Of a stretch of 32,000 bases of DNA, positions 18,275-26,619 are shown piece by piece. Where the stretch lies: NCBI GenBank assembly GCA_000166095.1, contig CP002278.1, positions 660,001 to 692,000 on the forward strand, written 5' to 3'. The translations under genes were made by a program, and so were the position numbers. Below the pieces are notes generated by a model. It made no database searches. It was not told the DNA's origin and worked only from the letters and a program-made list of their open reading frames with translations. Numbering within the stretch: position 1 is the stretch's first letter; every line of letters begins with the position of its first letter. The DNA is from Methanothermus fervidus DSM 2088 (lineage in GTDB: Archaea; Methanobacteriota; Methanobacteria; DSM-2088; Methanothermaceae).

Positions 18275-18318
18275 GAATATAGCCCCTATCAAGTTCGTAT
18301 TCCATGGTTATTATTTCT

Positions 18319-18332
18319 GATATAAATACTTT
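18319..18332 (-). promoter_or_regulatory. fsr promoter (BRE/TATA: AAAAGTATTTATAT on the minus strand)
   Basis: The AAAnnTTTATATA-type methanogen promoter consensus lies about 45 nt upstream of ATG 18274. The same 14-mer recurs in both pyrC-flanking repeat arms. Confidence 0.5.
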
Positions 18333-18601
18333 TCAACTCTTGTTTCCTAATTTGCAAAAGACTTTTCACTAATAAAGTTAAATTTTTTGATTATTTTTGT
18401 TATGTGTTTGTAAAACATCGTATCTTTAACCTTTAGACCTCTGATGCCGGCAAGAAATCCCGAACATCCACAAACCATTTTAAAAATTTTTTGAATTTTT
18501 TACAAACAGAATTTTTAAAAAATAAAAAAATAAAAAGAAGATTGAAATTGATTTTGTGAAAAACCAGATTTCCACTCTATCAGGGATTGAGAGAAAACAG
18601 A

Positions 18602-18616
18602 AAAAGTATTTATATA
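18602..18616 (+). promoter_or_regulatory. Distal BRE/TATA-like element pointing toward pyrC (AAAAGTATTTATATA)
   Basis: Matches the methanogen AAAnnTTTATATA consensus. The expected TSS is near 18640, about 300 nt upstream of the pyrC ATG. Confidence 0.5.
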
Positions 18617-18737
18617 GATGAAGTACAAAACTAGCACTTGTTCTAAAAAAATATACACAACTCTTCTTTTACTTCCTCTTTCTCTCTCCAAAAATGCTCT
18701 AGAAATTAAGAAAACTATATATATCCTTTCATACTAC

Positions 18738-18744
18738 TTTTTTT
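18738..18744 (+). terminator. T7 run inside the pyrC leader (candidate attenuator/terminator of a short leader RNA)
   Basis: TTTTTTT lies about 100 nt downstream of the predicted distal TSS. Oligo-T tracts are the archaeal intrinsic termination signal. Confidence 0.3.
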
Positions 18745-18945
18745 CATGAGATGACTTCCCATACAATTACAAAGCTGAAAAAAACTGGTAGGTAGTTAAG
18801 AAGGTCTAAATGCATTAAAAGGATTAAAAATAAGTTAAGAGATTATATATCAGCATTTAAGACACTGTTGAGGGAATAGAGTAACCTTGATAGCCTGTAG
18901 GCAAGTTTTCTTTAGAAGTAGGAAGCTCTGTAGGAGTAGTTCACC

Positions 18946-20235
18946 ATGGTGGACCTATGTATTAAGAATTGCAAATTAAATGGAAAAATTGTAAATATTG
19001 GGGTTGAAGATGGCAAAATAATAAAGATCAGTAAATTACCATTTAAAAATTGTGAAACAATAGACATAAAAGGTAGAATAATATTCCCAGGCTTGATTGA
19101 TGCACATGTACATTTTAGAGAACCAGGAATGGAATATAAAGAAGACTTTAAAAGTGGATCAATGGCAGCAGCGCATGGAGGATTTACAACGGTTCTAGAC
19201 ATGCCAAATACAAAACCTCCCACAAATACTTTAAAAGAATTTAAAAGAAAGATTAAACTTGCATCTAAAAAAAGTATTGTGGATTTTGGATTACATGCTG
19301 GTGTAAATTTACAAGAAGTCCAAAAAATTGTAAAGTTAAGTCCAGCTTCTTTTAAAATTTACATGGAAGACACGAGTATAAACACTATAAAAAAAATGTT
19401 TGATATTTTAAATTCAACAAATATCCCACTTACTTTTCATTGTGAAAAAAGAGAAATTAATTATGAAAGAGATCACAGAGGAAAAAGTCCTCATTTTTAT
19501 TCAGATGCAAGACCTACTATAAGTGAGGAAATTGCAGTTGCAGAAGCTGTTTCATTTTCAGCTCATTATAATCATCCTATACATATATGCCATTTAAGCT
19601 CAAAAAAAGCTTTAAAAATCATAAAAAATATGCGAAATTTAGCACCAGTTACATGTGAGGTTACACCTCATCATTTATTTTTGGATTCAAGTTATTTCAA
19701 CAAATTTGGCAGTTTTGTAAAGACAAATCCCCCACTACGGTCTAGAGAGGAAGGTATAAATATTAAAGACTTAAATGATATCGATATTATTGCTACTGAT
19801 CATGCTCCACATACTTTAGATGAAAAAGAAAAAGAATTTTGGGAAGCACCAGCAGGTATACCTAATCTTGAAGTATCTTTAAAATTATTTTTAACTTTAT
19901 TTGCAAAAGGTAAAATTAAATTAAATGAAATAAAAACTATGTTTTGCGAAAAACCAGCAACTATTTTTGGTTTAACTAATAAAGGTTTTATTAAGGAAGG
20001 CATGGACGCAGATTTTGTTGTCATAGATCATAAAAAAACTGGTAAGATAAGTGCTGATGAATTTTATAGTAAGGCACAATATACACCTTTTGAAGGTTTT
20101 GAATATATTGGAGAAGCAGTAATGACCATACTTCGCGGCAAAGTAATTATGGAGGAAGGTGAAGTATTTAAAAATAAAGGTAAATATGTCAGGAGTGAAT
20201 ATAGGCTACCTCCTACAGAGCTTCCTACTTCATAA
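18946..20235 (+). CDS. pyrC: Dihydroorotase
   Basis: 429 aa. The metal-binding GLIDAHVHFREPG motif, ...GGFTTVLDMPNTKPP, DHAPH and the overall amidohydrolase layout are typical of class I DHOase. SD AGGAG (18932-18936) lies 9 nt upstream of the ATG. Confidence 0.9.
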   Translation: MVDLCIKNCKLNGKIVNIGVEDGKIIKISKLPFKNCETIDIKGRIIFPGLIDAHVHFREPGMEYKEDFKSGSMAAAHGGFTTVLDMPNTKPPTNTLKEFKRKIKLASKKSIVDFGLHAGVNLQEVQKIVKLSPASFKIYMEDTSINTIKKMFDILNSTNIPLTFHCEKREINYERDHRGKSPHFYSDARPTISEEIAVAEAVSFSAHYNHPIHICHLSSKKALKIIKNMRNLAPVTCEVTPHHLFLDSSYFNKFGSFVKTNPPLRSREEGINIKDLNDIDIIATDHAPHTLDEKEKEFWEAPAGIPNLEVSLKLFLTLFAKGKIKLNEIKTMFCEKPATIFGLTNKGFIKEGMDADFVVIDHKKTGKISADEFYSKAQYTPFEGFEYIGEAVMTILRGKVIMEEGEVFKNKGKYVRSEYRLPPTELPTS

Positions 20236-20617
20236 AGAAAACTTGCCCAGAGACTATATCTCTATAAGAGACAATCCTGAGTAGAGCATTCTCCTAAACA
20301 GGCAGTCAAAACTACCTTATATCCTCAACAATACTCTATATAGACTTATTCTTACATGTTAGAAAAATAATTATAAACATGCCTATAAATCTCCAAAGTT
20401 TCCAATAGTTTATCTTCTGTTCTTTGCTTAATAAACTTCTGAATTTATATAGCTATATCTTATGAAGAAAAGTGGTATATTATGCTTTTCTTTTTTCTAA
20501 ATATTAATTTGCTTTGGAGAAAGAAGGAGTGAGAGAGTTGTGTATATTTTTTAAAACAAGTGTTATTTTGTACTTCATCTATATAAATACTTTTCTTATT
20601 TCTCAATCCCTGATAAG
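20206..20617. repeat. Right arm of the long imperfect inverted repeat flanking pyrC (begins inside the last 9 codons of pyrC)
   Basis: The reverse complement aligns with 18577-18940. It carries a 47-nt insertion (20247-20293) relative to the left arm. Confidence 0.85.
20580..20594 (-). promoter_or_regulatory. Second copy of the BRE/TATA-like element, oriented toward the 3' end of pyrC (antisense)
   Basis: The minus strand reads AAAAGTATTTATATA, inside a 29-nt block identical to 18602-18630. No ORF lies downstream of it on the minus strand. Confidence 0.4.
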
Positions 20618-20624
20618 CGAATAT

Positions 20625-20630
20625 AAAAAA
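20625..20630 (-). terminator. Oligo-T terminator of the dph5-methyltransferase-FAH operon
   Basis: The minus strand reads TGAGTATTTTTTAT directly after the FAH stop (20634-20636). Confidence 0.4.
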
Positions 20631-25324: not shown

Positions 25325-25341
25325 TTTTTTAGGTGATAGGG

Positions 25342-26619
25342 ATGTCAATATTAATAAAAAATGCAAAAATTGTCGATGTTAAAGGTACAAGGAAAGGATC
25401 TATTCTTATTGAAGATGATAAGATAGTAAAGATAGGTGATATAAGAGAAGATGAAGGAGATAAAATTATAGATGCCAGCGACAAGTTGGTTATTCCTGGA
25501 TTAATTAATACACATACACACTTATCTATGACGTTGTTTAGAGGTATAGCTGATGATTTACAGCTGCATAAATGGTTAGAAAATTATATTTGGCCACTTG
25601 AAAAACATTTAAATGAGGATTATTGTTATGCTGGTGCACTTCTTGGATGTATAGAAATGATAAAATCTGGAACAACAGCATTTAATGATATGTATTTTTA
25701 TATGGATTCTGTTGCAAAGGCAATTGAAAAATGTGGTTTGAGGGCTGTTATAAGTCATGGGATGATTGATTTAAATAACGAAGATAAAATGAAAAAAGAA
25801 ATCAAAGAATCTAAAAGGATTGTAAAGAAATGTCATGGGATGGCAGATGGTAGAATATCGGTGGCTTTAGGTCCTCATTCTCCTTACACTTGTTCAGAAA
25901 AATTACTTAAAAAAACTTCAAAATATGCTAATAAAAATAATTTAAAAATACACATACACGTTTCAGAGACAAGAGAGGAGATTAAAACAATTAAAGAAAG
26001 GTATGGGATGAGACCGTTTGAATATTTAGATGACATAGGCTTTCTAGGTGAAAATGTAATAGCTGCACATGCCGTATGGCTTTCAGAAGAAGAAATCAAA
26101 ATAATTAAAAATAATAATGTGAAAATATCCCATAACCCTGTGAGCAACATGAAACTTGCCTCTGGAATTTCACCTGTTAGTAAAATGTTAGATGAAAATA
26201 TTACTGTATCTTTGGGCACTGATGGTGCAGCATCTAATAACAATCTTGACATGTTAGAAGAAATGAAGATAGCAGCTTTATTACAGAAAGTTCATTATTT
26301 AGATCCAACAAAATTGTCAGCAAAAGATGTTTTTGCAATGGCTACTATAAATGGTGCTAAAACACTTGGAATAAATGCAGGACTGATCGAGGTAGGTAAA
26401 AAAGCAGACTTAGTGTTAATAAATGTAAAGAGATGTAATTTAACCCCATTTAGGAATCCAATTTCACATTTGGTATATTCAGCTAATGGTTACAATGTCA
26501 CAACAGTTATTGTAGATGGAAAAATATTAATGGAAGATAATGTTGTTCAAGTAATTAACGAAAAAGAAGTGATGGAAATCGCAGAAAATGCAAGTGATGA
26601 ATTATTATCAAAGTCATAG
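25342..26619 (+). CDS. mtaD: 5'-methylthioadenosine/S-adenosylhomocysteine (5'-deoxyadenosine) deaminase
   Basis: Amidohydrolase with GLINTHTHLSMTLFRG, HVSET, AHAVWL and GTDGAASNNNLDM motifs typical of MtaD/DadD. ATG 25342 is preferred, with AGGTGA 5 nt upstream. Confidence 0.85.
   Translation: MSILIKNAKIVDVKGTRKGSILIEDDKIVKIGDIREDEGDKIIDASDKLVIPGLINTHTHLSMTLFRGIADDLQLHKWLENYIWPLEKHLNEDYCYAGALLGCIEMIKSGTTAFNDMYFYMDSVAKAIEKCGLRAVISHGMIDLNNEDKMKKEIKESKRIVKKCHGMADGRISVALGPHSPYTCSEKLLKKTSKYANKNNLKIHIHVSETREEIKTIKERYGMRPFEYLDDIGFLGENVIAAHAVWLSEEEIKIIKNNNVKISHNPVSNMKLASGISPVSKMLDENITVSLGTDGAASNNNLDMLEEMKIAALLQKVHYLDPTKLSAKDVFAMATINGAKTLGINAGLIEVGKKADLVLINVKRCNLTPFRNPISHLVYSANGYNVTTVIVDGKILMEDNVVQVINEKEVMEIAENASDELLSKS

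Follow-up and report, generated by a model that had tools for sequence, protein, structure and literature searches.

The dihydroorotase gene pyrC of Methanothermus fervidus DSM 2088 (genome 1.24 Mb, growth at ~83 °C) is flanked on both sides by an imperfect, collinear inverted repeat, 18578-18939 against 20615-20206 of the 32,000-nt stretch of DNA that was analysed (the window, to which all coordinates refer). That this repeat is real and unusual is confirmed, and its function is a matter of inference only. The explanation we favor, to which we assign a probability of about one half, is that the pyrC promoter-leader region was duplicated in inverted orientation, that islands within the two copies have since been kept alike by selection and/or gene conversion, and that these islands act through an mRNA helix and antisense RNA. 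The features on which the argument turns are as follows:

18946-20235, plus strand: pyrC, dihydroorotase, 429 aa, ADP77496.1
18578-18939, plus strand: left arm, the non-coding promoter-leader region of pyrC, 362 nt, collinear with the reverse complement of 20206-20615
20206-20615, minus strand: right arm, an inverted and diverged promoter-leader copy, 410 nt, whose plus strand is the pyrC 3' trailer
18578-18592, plus strand: outer 15-mer TATCAGGGATTGAGA, 9 nt upstream of the 29-mer, a possible upstream factor site
20601-20615, minus strand: right-arm 15-mer, a perfect copy of the left one
18602-18630, plus strand: 29-mer with a BRE-like AAAAGTA and TATA box TTTATATA (18609-18616), putative core of a distal, inward-facing promoter
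20566-20594, minus strand: right-arm 29-mer with BRE/TATA (TATA 20587-20580) facing pyrC, a predicted convergent promoter
18646-18664, plus strand: 19-mer AAAAAATATACACAACTCT, a second TATA-like element or the start of the transcribed region, complementary to 20534-20552
18890-18939, plus strand: left inner block, a leader segment including the Shine-Dalgarno (SD) AGGAG (18932-18936), 9 nt ahead of the ATG
20206-20257, minus strand: right inner block, complementary to the leader and SD, overlapping the last 30 nt of the coding sequence (CDS) and holding the stop codon (20233-20235)

The identity of the enclosed gene is secure (421.7 bits against TIGR00857, cut-off 279), and a first-pass annotation of the window was right that pyrC stands alone between the arms. 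It was also right that the arms occupy the two largest gene-free gaps, of 671 and 398 nt; the third largest measures 336 nt. The blastn self-comparison that it proposed, of the arms against the whole window, recovered the collinear match as an outer HSP (18578-18752 against 20615-20457, 175 nt, 75% identity, E = 8e-26) and an inner HSP (18890-18936 against 20257-20210, 48 nt, 92%, E = 9e-11), and no further significant copy of either arm. All the sequence blocks that it had listed lie where it placed them. The 15-mer has two matches in the window at up to two mismatches, a count that none of 100 shuffles reached; the 29-mer is identical in both arms and yields no matches in shuffles, and the 19-mer is 100% complementary to its counterpart.

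Segment identities were taken from a global alignment of 363 against 409 nt. They are 0.91 in the outer core (18578-18664, 87 nt), 0.61 in the outer tail, 0.52 and 0.50 in the two middle parts and 0.84 in the inner part (18890-18940, 51 nt), bearing out the early impression that the ends are conserved above the middle, and the shift from perfect runs to stretches of ~50% identity is abrupt. Against dinucleotide shuffles the outer block stands at z = 26 and the inner block at z = 16, with 5.0 for 18700-18800 and 3.2 for 18800-18889 (3 of 300 shuffles); taken as one segment, 18753-18889 has no significant similarity between the arms (z = 0.8), and residual homology is seen at 18824-18871 against 20355-20306. 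Some details of the annotation needed amendment. Its near-perfect inner block exists but is 48 nt long and not 36, and instead of merely abutting the CDS the right arm reaches 30 nt into it (20206-20235). Its second TATA-like patch followed by TGTTGAGG is likewise present, but with unequal spacing in the two arms (16 versus 6 nt).

Structured non-coding RNAs of AT-rich hyperthermophiles, in GC-based screens, show a GC content well above the genome background and folding energies beyond those of shuffled sequences. The arms have a GC content of 0.29-0.31, the same as the genome (the window has 0.31), and folded alone they give z-scores of -1.8 to +1.7 and minimum free energies (MFE) of 0 to -4.9 kcal/mol at 83 °C. 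Neither arm matched an Rfam family at gathering or permissive thresholds (even E ≤ 5), no tRNA or tmRNA genes were found, and on GC content, folding and Rfam together the arms were rejected as structured ncRNA genes. Nor is a protein shared by them: six-frame translation, reading inward and outward, gave no ORF common to both arms, as the frames break at indels, and no gene call is on record for a 43-aa ORF at 18618-18749.

The nearest analogy that had been suggested was to the processing stems of rRNA operons and to bulge-helix-bulge (BHB) dependent circular RNAs, and one could therefore picture the arms as paired ncRNA genes or as a BHB stem yielding a circular pyrC RNA. Like the archaeal rRNA/BHB stems, the arms are long inverted repeats on either side of a transcribed unit, able to pair within its transcript; their ends are conserved and their middle is variable, and the long helix from flanking sequences that recalls the 16S/23S stems does form in MFE folds at 83 °C. 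The BHB motif, two 3-nt bulges on opposite strands 4 bp apart, is nevertheless absent from the predicted arm-arm duplex, in which 211 intermolecular pairs were parsed and the loops, chiefly bulges of 1 nt and asymmetric internal loops, include no 3-4-3 arrangement. With that the analogy loses its basis. Unlike such stems, the pyrC arms enclose an mRNA and each carry a promoter, and with their low GC, their insignificant folding and an MFE of about 0 at the growth temperature we find a processing or ncRNA role scarcely credible.

A second alternative is that two MITE-like or promoter-carrying copies of a mobile or miniature element inserted independently, in opposite orientations, around pyrC. 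Two observations are in keeping with it: a 15-nt promoter core of the arms recurs at the neighboring fsr gene, and public short-read contigs of M. fervidus end in or beside the arms (18594, 18856 and 20574-20595), as can happen at multi-copy repeats. Those ends vary by sample, however, and no alternative junctions were seen at them. A drop in coverage in AT-rich DNA may play a part, as many of the runs are probably MNase-seq and presumably belong to the M. fervidus MNase-seq data set of PMC6877293; the 29-mer is too short to branch a k = 31 graph, and in DRR667206 the Fsr-side contig ends before the left arm. We therefore rejected the contig ends as evidence for extra copies or for inversion isomers.

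Neither arm has terminal inverted repeats or, as previously claimed, target-site duplications; the flanks differ, and the outer end (TATCAGGG...) is unrelated to the inner end (...GGAGTAG). The two copies are the only ones in the ~60 kb of M. fervidus DNA searched, and matches elsewhere were of chance length: a 20-mer from the promoter core returned 10 metagenome loci that each match over 20-30 nt only, a viral scan with an inner 22-mer gave no matches, and the 69 viral matches to the 15-mer were taken as chance. Finally, the arms meet pyrC directly on both sides, at its start and at its end, and the SD spacing is functional, which is not expected of independent insertions. A mobile origin is thus very improbable.

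The geometry of the arms also invites the idea of an invertible segment, in which recombination between them would flip pyrC as in invertons or in the flip-flop isomers of plastids. In its favor, the inverted arms are fully identical over stretches of 29, 19 and 15 nt and 92% identical over the 48-nt block, and like invertons they bracket a short segment with expression signals. Against it, as the first-pass annotation had noted for the interior, there is no recombinase or transposase, and Pfam content extends this to ~12 kb on each side (genes from ~6.4 to 31.3 kb of the window). The arms, hundreds of base pairs long and imperfect, are unlike site-specific inverted repeats, and contigs that read into an arm all follow the reference, none spanning a whole arm. 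An inversion is geometrically possible, but the arms are symmetric, and pyrC would keep the same leader, preceded by an equivalent promoter, with nothing switched and no consequence for expression. We regard a switch of this kind as highly improbable.

Comparison with relatives places the origin of the repeat within the M. fervidus lineage. The relatives' PyrC proteins are 64-66% identical and their genes lie between HIGH_NTase1 and mvhB, with pyrC spacers of ~20-40 nt at three of four loci; the annotation had suggested looking there for the repeat, and none of the four loci examined has one. In M. fervidus an Mrr-type gene occupies the ancestral place of pyrC, the HIGH_NTase1/FKBP slot, where a search for arm-like DNA found none. 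A PyrC scan of the genome collection returned a single Methanobacterium MAG, at 48% identity. The last nine PyrC residues, LPPTELPTS, are encoded by repeat DNA (20206-20235) and have no counterpart among 34 PyrC homologues, and it is this unique tail, together with the extension of the right arm 30 nt into the CDS, which argues for a secondary inverted duplication of the fold-back type. The repeat therefore looks like a lineage-specific, secondary duplication of the pyrC promoter-leader. At the inner junction there is an inverted 5-nt microhomology, TTCAC (18940-18944) and GTGAA (20195-20199). Fold-back and template-switch events are described in which a nearby segment is copied in reverse at short inverted microhomology (PMC7954356; PMC3907307), and these, like the pyrC repeat, need no recombinase or transposase. 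The described cases are mostly from eukaryotes or experimental bacteria, whereas the pyrC copy has persisted until its middle decayed, with two islands still near-identical.

Further elements bear on how the arms may be read as promoters and trailers:

18661-18689, plus strand: polypyrimidine (CU) tract CTCTTCTTTTACTTCCTCTTTCTCTCTCC, kept in part in the right arm
18738-18744, plus strand: T7 run, ~100 nt past the distal promoter
18842-18849, plus strand: proximal TATA-like element ATTATATA, 104 nt ahead of the pyrC ATG, a candidate proximal pyrC promoter
20337-20344, minus strand: counterpart of the proximal TATA-like element, TCTATATA on that strand
18320-18334, minus strand: fsr promoter core GAAAAGTATTTATAT, the same as that of the arms; context, not demonstrably part of the repeat
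20486-20496, plus strand: T4CT6 run (T6 at 20491-20496), the first after the pyrC stop
20547-20552, plus strand: second T6, beyond the first T-run
20625-20630, minus strand: T6, 4 nt past the stop of an FAA-hydrolase gene, terminator of the upstream operon

As claimed from the outset, both promoter-like elements face inward, with a BRE/TATA 29-mer on each arm. The real genes of the window have a TATA box 52-59 nt ahead of their ATG, and the 15-nt core shared with the arm 29-mers lies 52 nt ahead of the fsr ATG; because the core sits before fsr at the canonical TATA distance, the arm islands read as promoters. The thought that the fsr promoter-leader might be a degenerate third copy of the arm was rejected, as only the 15-nt BRE/TATA core stands out and collinear word chaining scores the wider fsr region no better than other promoters or shuffles. 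A transcription start site (TSS) of the distal promoter is expected near 18636-18640. The T7 run is likely an intrinsic terminator or attenuator for transcripts from this promoter, most of which would then stop before pyrC, a point that counts against our favored explanation. The spacing from the 15-mer to the BRE differs through indels (9 versus 6 nt), which speaks against a tightly phased factor site. On the far side of pyrC, the correctly oriented BRE/TATA elements (20594-20566, minus strand) support an antisense promoter at the level of motifs, and since the T6 at 20625-20630 ends the upstream operon, the right-arm promoter would form a separate unit. TSSs, 3' ends and antisense RNA are all deduced here from motifs, a literature search for TSS or RNA-seq studies of M. 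fervidus having found none.

Downstream of the pyrC stop, the first run of four or more T on the plus strand comes only at 251 nt, whereas the other operon-terminal genes of the window have T5 or longer within 1-14 nt. The lack of any such run for 250 nt implies that the trailer should be transcribed, and the T4CT6 run is the probable pyrC terminator, giving a 3' UTR of ~260 nt. Within such a transcript, the SD-containing leader (18890-18936) is complementary to the trailer (20257-20210), with 18936 pairing to 20210. The predicted helix of ~47 bp has an energy of -73.8 kcal/mol at 37 °C and about -22 (-22.1 to -22.4) at 83 °C, and when the full-length sense RNA is folded at 83 °C the MFE structure contains it; leader-trailer pairs in such folds number 47-114, varying with the transcript ends. 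In these calculations the helix buries the SD and sets the stop codon beside the start, and the pairing of 5' leader with 3' trailer that had been proposed for the sense transcript appears physically plausible.

Our favored explanation then runs as follows. A reversed copy of the ~360-bp promoter and leader of pyrC would have been placed at the gene's own 3' end, likely through a fold-back or template-switch replication error. The junction lies within the last nine codons, where the frame passes into the repeat and finishes in a unique tail. Two islands have stayed near-identical, namely the promoter (15-mer, BRE/TATA 29-mer and first transcribed 19-mer) and the 48-nt SD leader segment. The trailer of the mRNA would be complementary to its own leader, in a ~47-bp helix calculated to be stable at the growth temperature; this may close the mRNA once it is complete, which would curb re-initiation, shield both ends or do both, and ribosomes terminating within the helix might reopen it. 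The right-arm promoter is expected, from its motifs, to fire toward pyrC and yield a short antisense RNA against the 3' trailer, which would compete with or reinforce closure. A bolder version, which we think unlikely, has the SD leader zip to the trailer in a closed-loop mRNA that the ribosome terminating at 20233-20235 melts, for a moment exposing the SD beside it. Translated mRNAs would stay open by self-coupled re-initiation and idle ones would be shut, with both ends protected at 83 °C, and a co-regulated antisense RNA from the twin promoter would titrate the trailer.

There are precedents for parts of this scheme. In E. coli and Salmonella, pyrC itself is controlled by a leader hairpin that, through CTP-sensitive choice of the start site, occludes the SD. 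The gene and the placing of RNA structure over the SD are thus the same, but the bacterial hairpin is local to the 5' leader and set by the starting nucleotide, whereas the M. fervidus partner would lie 1.3 kb away in the trailer. In the type I toxin mRNAs hok (fbi) and H. pylori aapA3, a long-distance 5'-3' interaction masks the SD of the full-length mRNA (PMC6733600). The modeled pyrC mRNA would resemble them in that a 3'-terminal segment pairs with the leader, masks the ribosome-binding site and closes the finished molecule. The toxin helices are short, bacterial and opened for activity by 3' trimming; that of pyrC is a predicted ~47 bp, derives from an inverted DNA duplication that includes the promoter, belongs to a biosynthetic gene in a hyperthermophilic archaeon and, unlike the toxin helices, includes the stop codon and the last nine codons. 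An archaeal precedent for both UTRs of one mRNA acting on translation comes from haloarchaea, in which the two UTRs must interact functionally in vivo for translational control (Brenneis & Soppa 2009, PMC2636863), although the title and abstract of that report mention no long inverted repeat or duplicated promoter, and halophiles have mostly leaderless mRNAs.

Very little is known of post-transcriptional control and the protection of mRNA ends in hyperthermophilic methanogens. Should both the helix and the twin promoter work, one replication accident would have provided this housekeeping gene at once with a long 3' UTR, an SD-masking 5'-3' closure that withstands 83 °C and a co-regulated antisense promoter. 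The closed loop, were it true, would add a mode of post-transcriptional control new to archaea, and a fold-back duplication would have made a regulatory circuit in one step.

The alternative that we take most seriously, possible though not what we expect, is that the repeat is a functionless relic: the left arm alone would serve, as the pyrC promoter and leader, the right one would be junk, and its islands would be recent intrachromosomal gene-conversion tracts copied from the left, the stretches too diverged to convert having decayed. It would leave a clean archaeal fold-back inverted duplication with patchy gene conversion, of modest evolutionary interest. The abrupt changes of identity between perfect runs and ~50% stretches suit it well, as does the right-arm SD-like AGGAGGT, which no start codon follows. 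Yet the genome is very compact, and a 400-nt junk spacer would rank second among the gaps of these 32 kb; the islands kept best fall exactly on recognizable functional elements (BRE/TATA and the SD segment) and not at random, and a junk trailer, if transcribed, would still pair with the leader, so that the absence of function requires a harmless helix.

Strain variation cuts both ways. Among comparator strains, all >99% identical to the reference, SRR24635347 has four of its eight SNPs clustered in 21 nt of the right inner block (P ~7e-4), where the reference right arm equals the left, and the left block is unchanged, which on the relic reading is the footprint expected of a conversion tract. 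All four changes fall at paired positions, however, and turn Watson-Crick pairs into G·U pairs, so that pairing is kept and the helix at 83 °C goes from -22.1 to -20.1 kcal/mol; two of the four alter the PyrC peptide tail. The chance that four transitions give only G·U pairs is ~0.14 for the base composition of the segment, which alone is not significant, and a gene-conversion tract or relaxed constraint would explain the cluster no less well than selection on the helix does. In strain SRR28875795 there is a substitution inside the right-arm 29-mer, which means that this block is not invariant and tolerates change, again in line with a relic. Selection on the elements and gene conversion from arm to arm may each, or jointly, have kept the patchy identity. 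Two partial members of the PyrC cluster, P0124 and P0126, had been considered as further variant strains and proved to be frameshifted reads of the reference strain.

The pyrC gene of the hyperthermophilic methanogen Methanothermus fervidus, which grows at about 83 °C, is flanked by the two arms of a long inverted repeat, and comparison of their sequences made a solid case that, specifically in Methanothermus, the pyrC promoter-leader was duplicated in inverted orientation and the copy became joined to the 3' end of the gene. From modeling of the RNA, the most likely functional consequence would be that the pyrC mRNA closes 5' to 3', with its Shine-Dalgarno (SD) sequence masked; that the convergent twin promoter would be a second functional element is less certain. 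The features concerned are:

18578-18939, plus strand: left arm, the pyrC promoter-leader
18946-20235: central ORF, PyrC (ADP77496.1)
20206-20615, minus strand: right arm, the inverted copy
central window protein: FAA-hydrolase-family protein (ADP77497.1)
central window protein: Fsr, F420-dependent sulfite-reductase-like (ADP77495.1)

By exact sequence match, these three proteins belong to strain DSM 2088. The host genome is 1.24 Mb and the GC content of the window is 31%. A TIGR00857 score of 421.7 bits (cut-off 279) and the Pfam domains Amidohydro_1 and DHOase mark the product of ORF 18946-20235 as a bona fide dihydroorotase. A second amidohydrolase lies 5 kb away (25333-26619); it is a deaminase/chlorohydrolase-type enzyme (NF004701, 678 bits) and was rejected as a PyrC paralogue.

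The perfect 15-mer and 29-mer that the first-pass annotation had described in the arms were present where it had placed them and well above chance, and a perfect 19-mer shared by the arms was likewise far above chance. Blastn searches of the complete window with each arm matched nothing besides the partner arm, in an outer HSP of 175 nt (75%, E = 8e-26) and an inner HSP of 48 nt (92%, E = 9e-11). That the match is collinear, with ends better kept than the middle, was borne out by blastn, global alignment and shuffle tests: identity by segment from outside to inside was 0.91, 0.61, 0.52, 0.50 and 0.84, and faint collinear homology was detectable at 18700-18800 (z = 5.0) and 18800-18889 (z = 3.2), while 18753-18889 taken as one piece was not significant (z = 0.8). 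Together, the exact repeats, the HSPs, the segment identities and the faint middle homology argue that the arms are a single inverted duplication, long and old, in which two islands have been well kept, and not two unrelated short repeats. They lie in the window's two largest stretches without genes, as had been noted, and there was no second long inverted repeat among ~60 kb of M. fervidus DNA.

Several other readings of the arms were considered and each is unlikely. No recombinase or transposase was present within ~12 kb on either side, where the first-pass annotation had noted their absence from the interior, and the arms themselves lack terminal inverted repeats and target duplications, which leaves little room for an inverton or a mobile element. 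The arms have the average GC content of the genome and share no ORF in any frame. As separate RNAs they gave no folding signal (z-scores −1.8 to +1.7, MFE essentially zero at 83 °C) and neither matched an Rfam family, making it improbable that they are ncRNA genes. An analogy to rRNA stems and circular RNAs had also been proposed, and it fails on its defining feature, since no bulge-helix-bulge motif exists in the arm-arm duplex; a reading of the arms in such terms is likewise unlikely.

In the real genes of the window, a TTTATATA-type box is found 52-59 nt upstream of the start codon. The 29-mer of the arms contains AAAAGTA followed by a perfect TTTATATA, and the 15-nt core GAAAAGTATTTATAT is identical in both arms and in the fsr promoter (18320-18334, minus strand), where it is at the canonical distance, 52 nt before the ATG; beyond this core, the fsr leader showed no significant homology to the arms. 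Because of the perfect box and the core in common with fsr, the outer island is credible as a strong, inward-pointing predicted promoter in both arms, in support of the earlier proposal of one such element per arm. Upstream of pyrC itself there is no TTTATATA-type box at the canonical distance; TATA-like elements occur at −104, −230 and −337, and many transcripts from the distal promoter would stop at a T7 run 100 nt downstream of it. The inner island is a leader segment that ends 3' in the SD, AGGAG, 9 nt upstream of the ATG. The 284 nt separating the fsr promoter from the left arm (18293-18576) hold a 43-aa minus-strand ORF (18347-18478), an island that is locally richer in GC (18436-18476) and an imperfect palindrome of AT-rich sequence (18382-18418/18495-18531).

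Oligo-T is the intrinsic termination signal of archaea, and a T5+ run follows the other operon-terminal genes of the window by 1-14 nt. For 250 nt past the pyrC stop there are no plus-strand T runs of ≥4, and the mRNA should therefore have a trailer of ~260-315 nt that ends at the T6 at 20491-20496 or 20547-20552. The proposal that the 5' leader of a sense transcript pairs with its 3' trailer was upheld as a prediction, i.e., 18890-18936 would form a helix with 20257-20210 (−73.8 kcal/mol at 37 °C, −22.4 at 83 °C) that covers the SD, takes in the pyrC stop codon, and forms part of the MFE fold predicted at 83 °C for the full-length RNA under either promoter. Mechanistically, this predicted closure is nearest to type I toxin mRNAs, in which long-distance interactions mask the SD (PMC6733600), and to the interplay of 5' and 3' UTRs reported in haloarchaea (PMC2636863). 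Transcription from the right-arm promoter would yield an RNA antisense to the pyrC trailer, probably a short one given the minus-strand T5 ~195 nt downstream, a T4CT3 within the inner block and the many T runs in pyrC. Literature searches on M. fervidus turned up an MNase-seq study (PMC6877293) and no transcriptome.

Public assemblies represent slightly differing M. fervidus strains (identity 99.4-99.9%). A contig from SRR24635347 spans 18869-20251 with 8 differences from the window, half of them in one 21-nt stretch of the right inner block (20215 A>G, 20217 A>G, 20221 C>T, 20235 A>G), a non-random cluster (P ~5e-7 per window, ~7e-4 corrected for position); the left inner block is unaltered. 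All four changes fall at paired positions of the predicted helix and turn a Watson-Crick pair into G·U, leaving the predicted structure unchanged (−20.1 vs. −22.1 kcal/mol at 83 °C), and two of them change residues of the peptide tail (T>A, L>F), with the stop TAA becoming TAG. This fits selection on the modeled pairing and not on the peptide; however, by our calculation from local base composition, the chance that four transitions would all keep pairing is ~14%. A gene-conversion tract explains the cluster equally well, since at exactly those sites the right block of the reference matches the left block. The main rival to a functional closure, a relic without function whose arms were homogenized by gene conversion, draws on this match and on the variability of the right-arm islands, and has about one chance in three. 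In a third strain, SRR28875795, there is one substitution within the right-arm 29-mer: the last 10 bases of its contig L011 (20574-20565) read GTATAAAAC vs. GTACAAAAT in the reference right arm. The final C agrees with the left arm and may reflect an ordinary SNP, a conversion tract or a recombinant junction, among which a single base cannot discriminate. Given these substitutions in two strains, the right-arm islands are not invariant, and arm-to-arm conversion remains a viable explanation of their near-identity. Independent short-read assemblies break repeatedly in or beside the arms, at 18594, 18856 and 20574-20595 (Logan contigs L001-L006, L012-L014 and L028-L035), with no alternative junctions seen at the breaks. 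A 29-mer repeat is not expected to branch a k = 31 graph; our guess is that MNase-seq libraries cover AT-rich DNA poorly, and a further arm copy elsewhere in the genome may be involved.

The closest available relatives, at four loci of the Methanothermobacter tenebrarum group (PyrC 64-66% identical), have pyrC flanked by a HIGH_NTase1 gene and the mvhB-mvhA cluster, with spacers of ~20-40 nt at three loci, a promoter ~30 nt upstream of the start and no inverted repeats. M. fervidus retains the HIGH_NTase1-FKBP pair, and adjoining it, in the relatives' pyrC slot, is a gene of the Mrr type:

6617-7339 of L108 (an M. fervidus contig from ERR9765779): Mrr_cat, restriction-endonuclease-like

The Methanothermus pyrC position is thus, by synteny, different from that of the relatives and lineage-specific. 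Beyond the Mrr_cat gene a ribosomal-protein cluster marks the synteny break, and the slot has no arm-like DNA. The long regions upstream and downstream of M. fervidus pyrC have no counterpart elsewhere. A Methanobacteriales MAG (JBFXIP010000005.1; L027, 6279-7333) has 1056 nt without called genes downstream of pyrC, where other relatives have ~20-40 nt; this stretch held no Rfam match or inverted repeat.

The right arm continues past the stop codon for 30 nt into the pyrC coding sequence (20206-20235). The repeat-encoded tail of nine residues, LPPTELPTS, is missing in all 34 aligned homologues, whose conserved part ends in SEY/SNY, and the overlap looks like a secondary junction, in which the frame enters newly joined DNA up to the first stop. 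The junction carries a 5-nt inverted microhomology (TTCAC 18940-18944/GTGAA 20195-20199), with a 6-nt filler between it and the repeat. The likely origin of the duplication is a replication event of the fold-back or template-switch type (reviewed in PMC7954356 and PMC3907307). Elsewhere in the window, an 80-nt direct repeat (27435-27514/29275-29354, 73% identity) lies within two adjacent GH130-family genes, presumably tandem paralogues.
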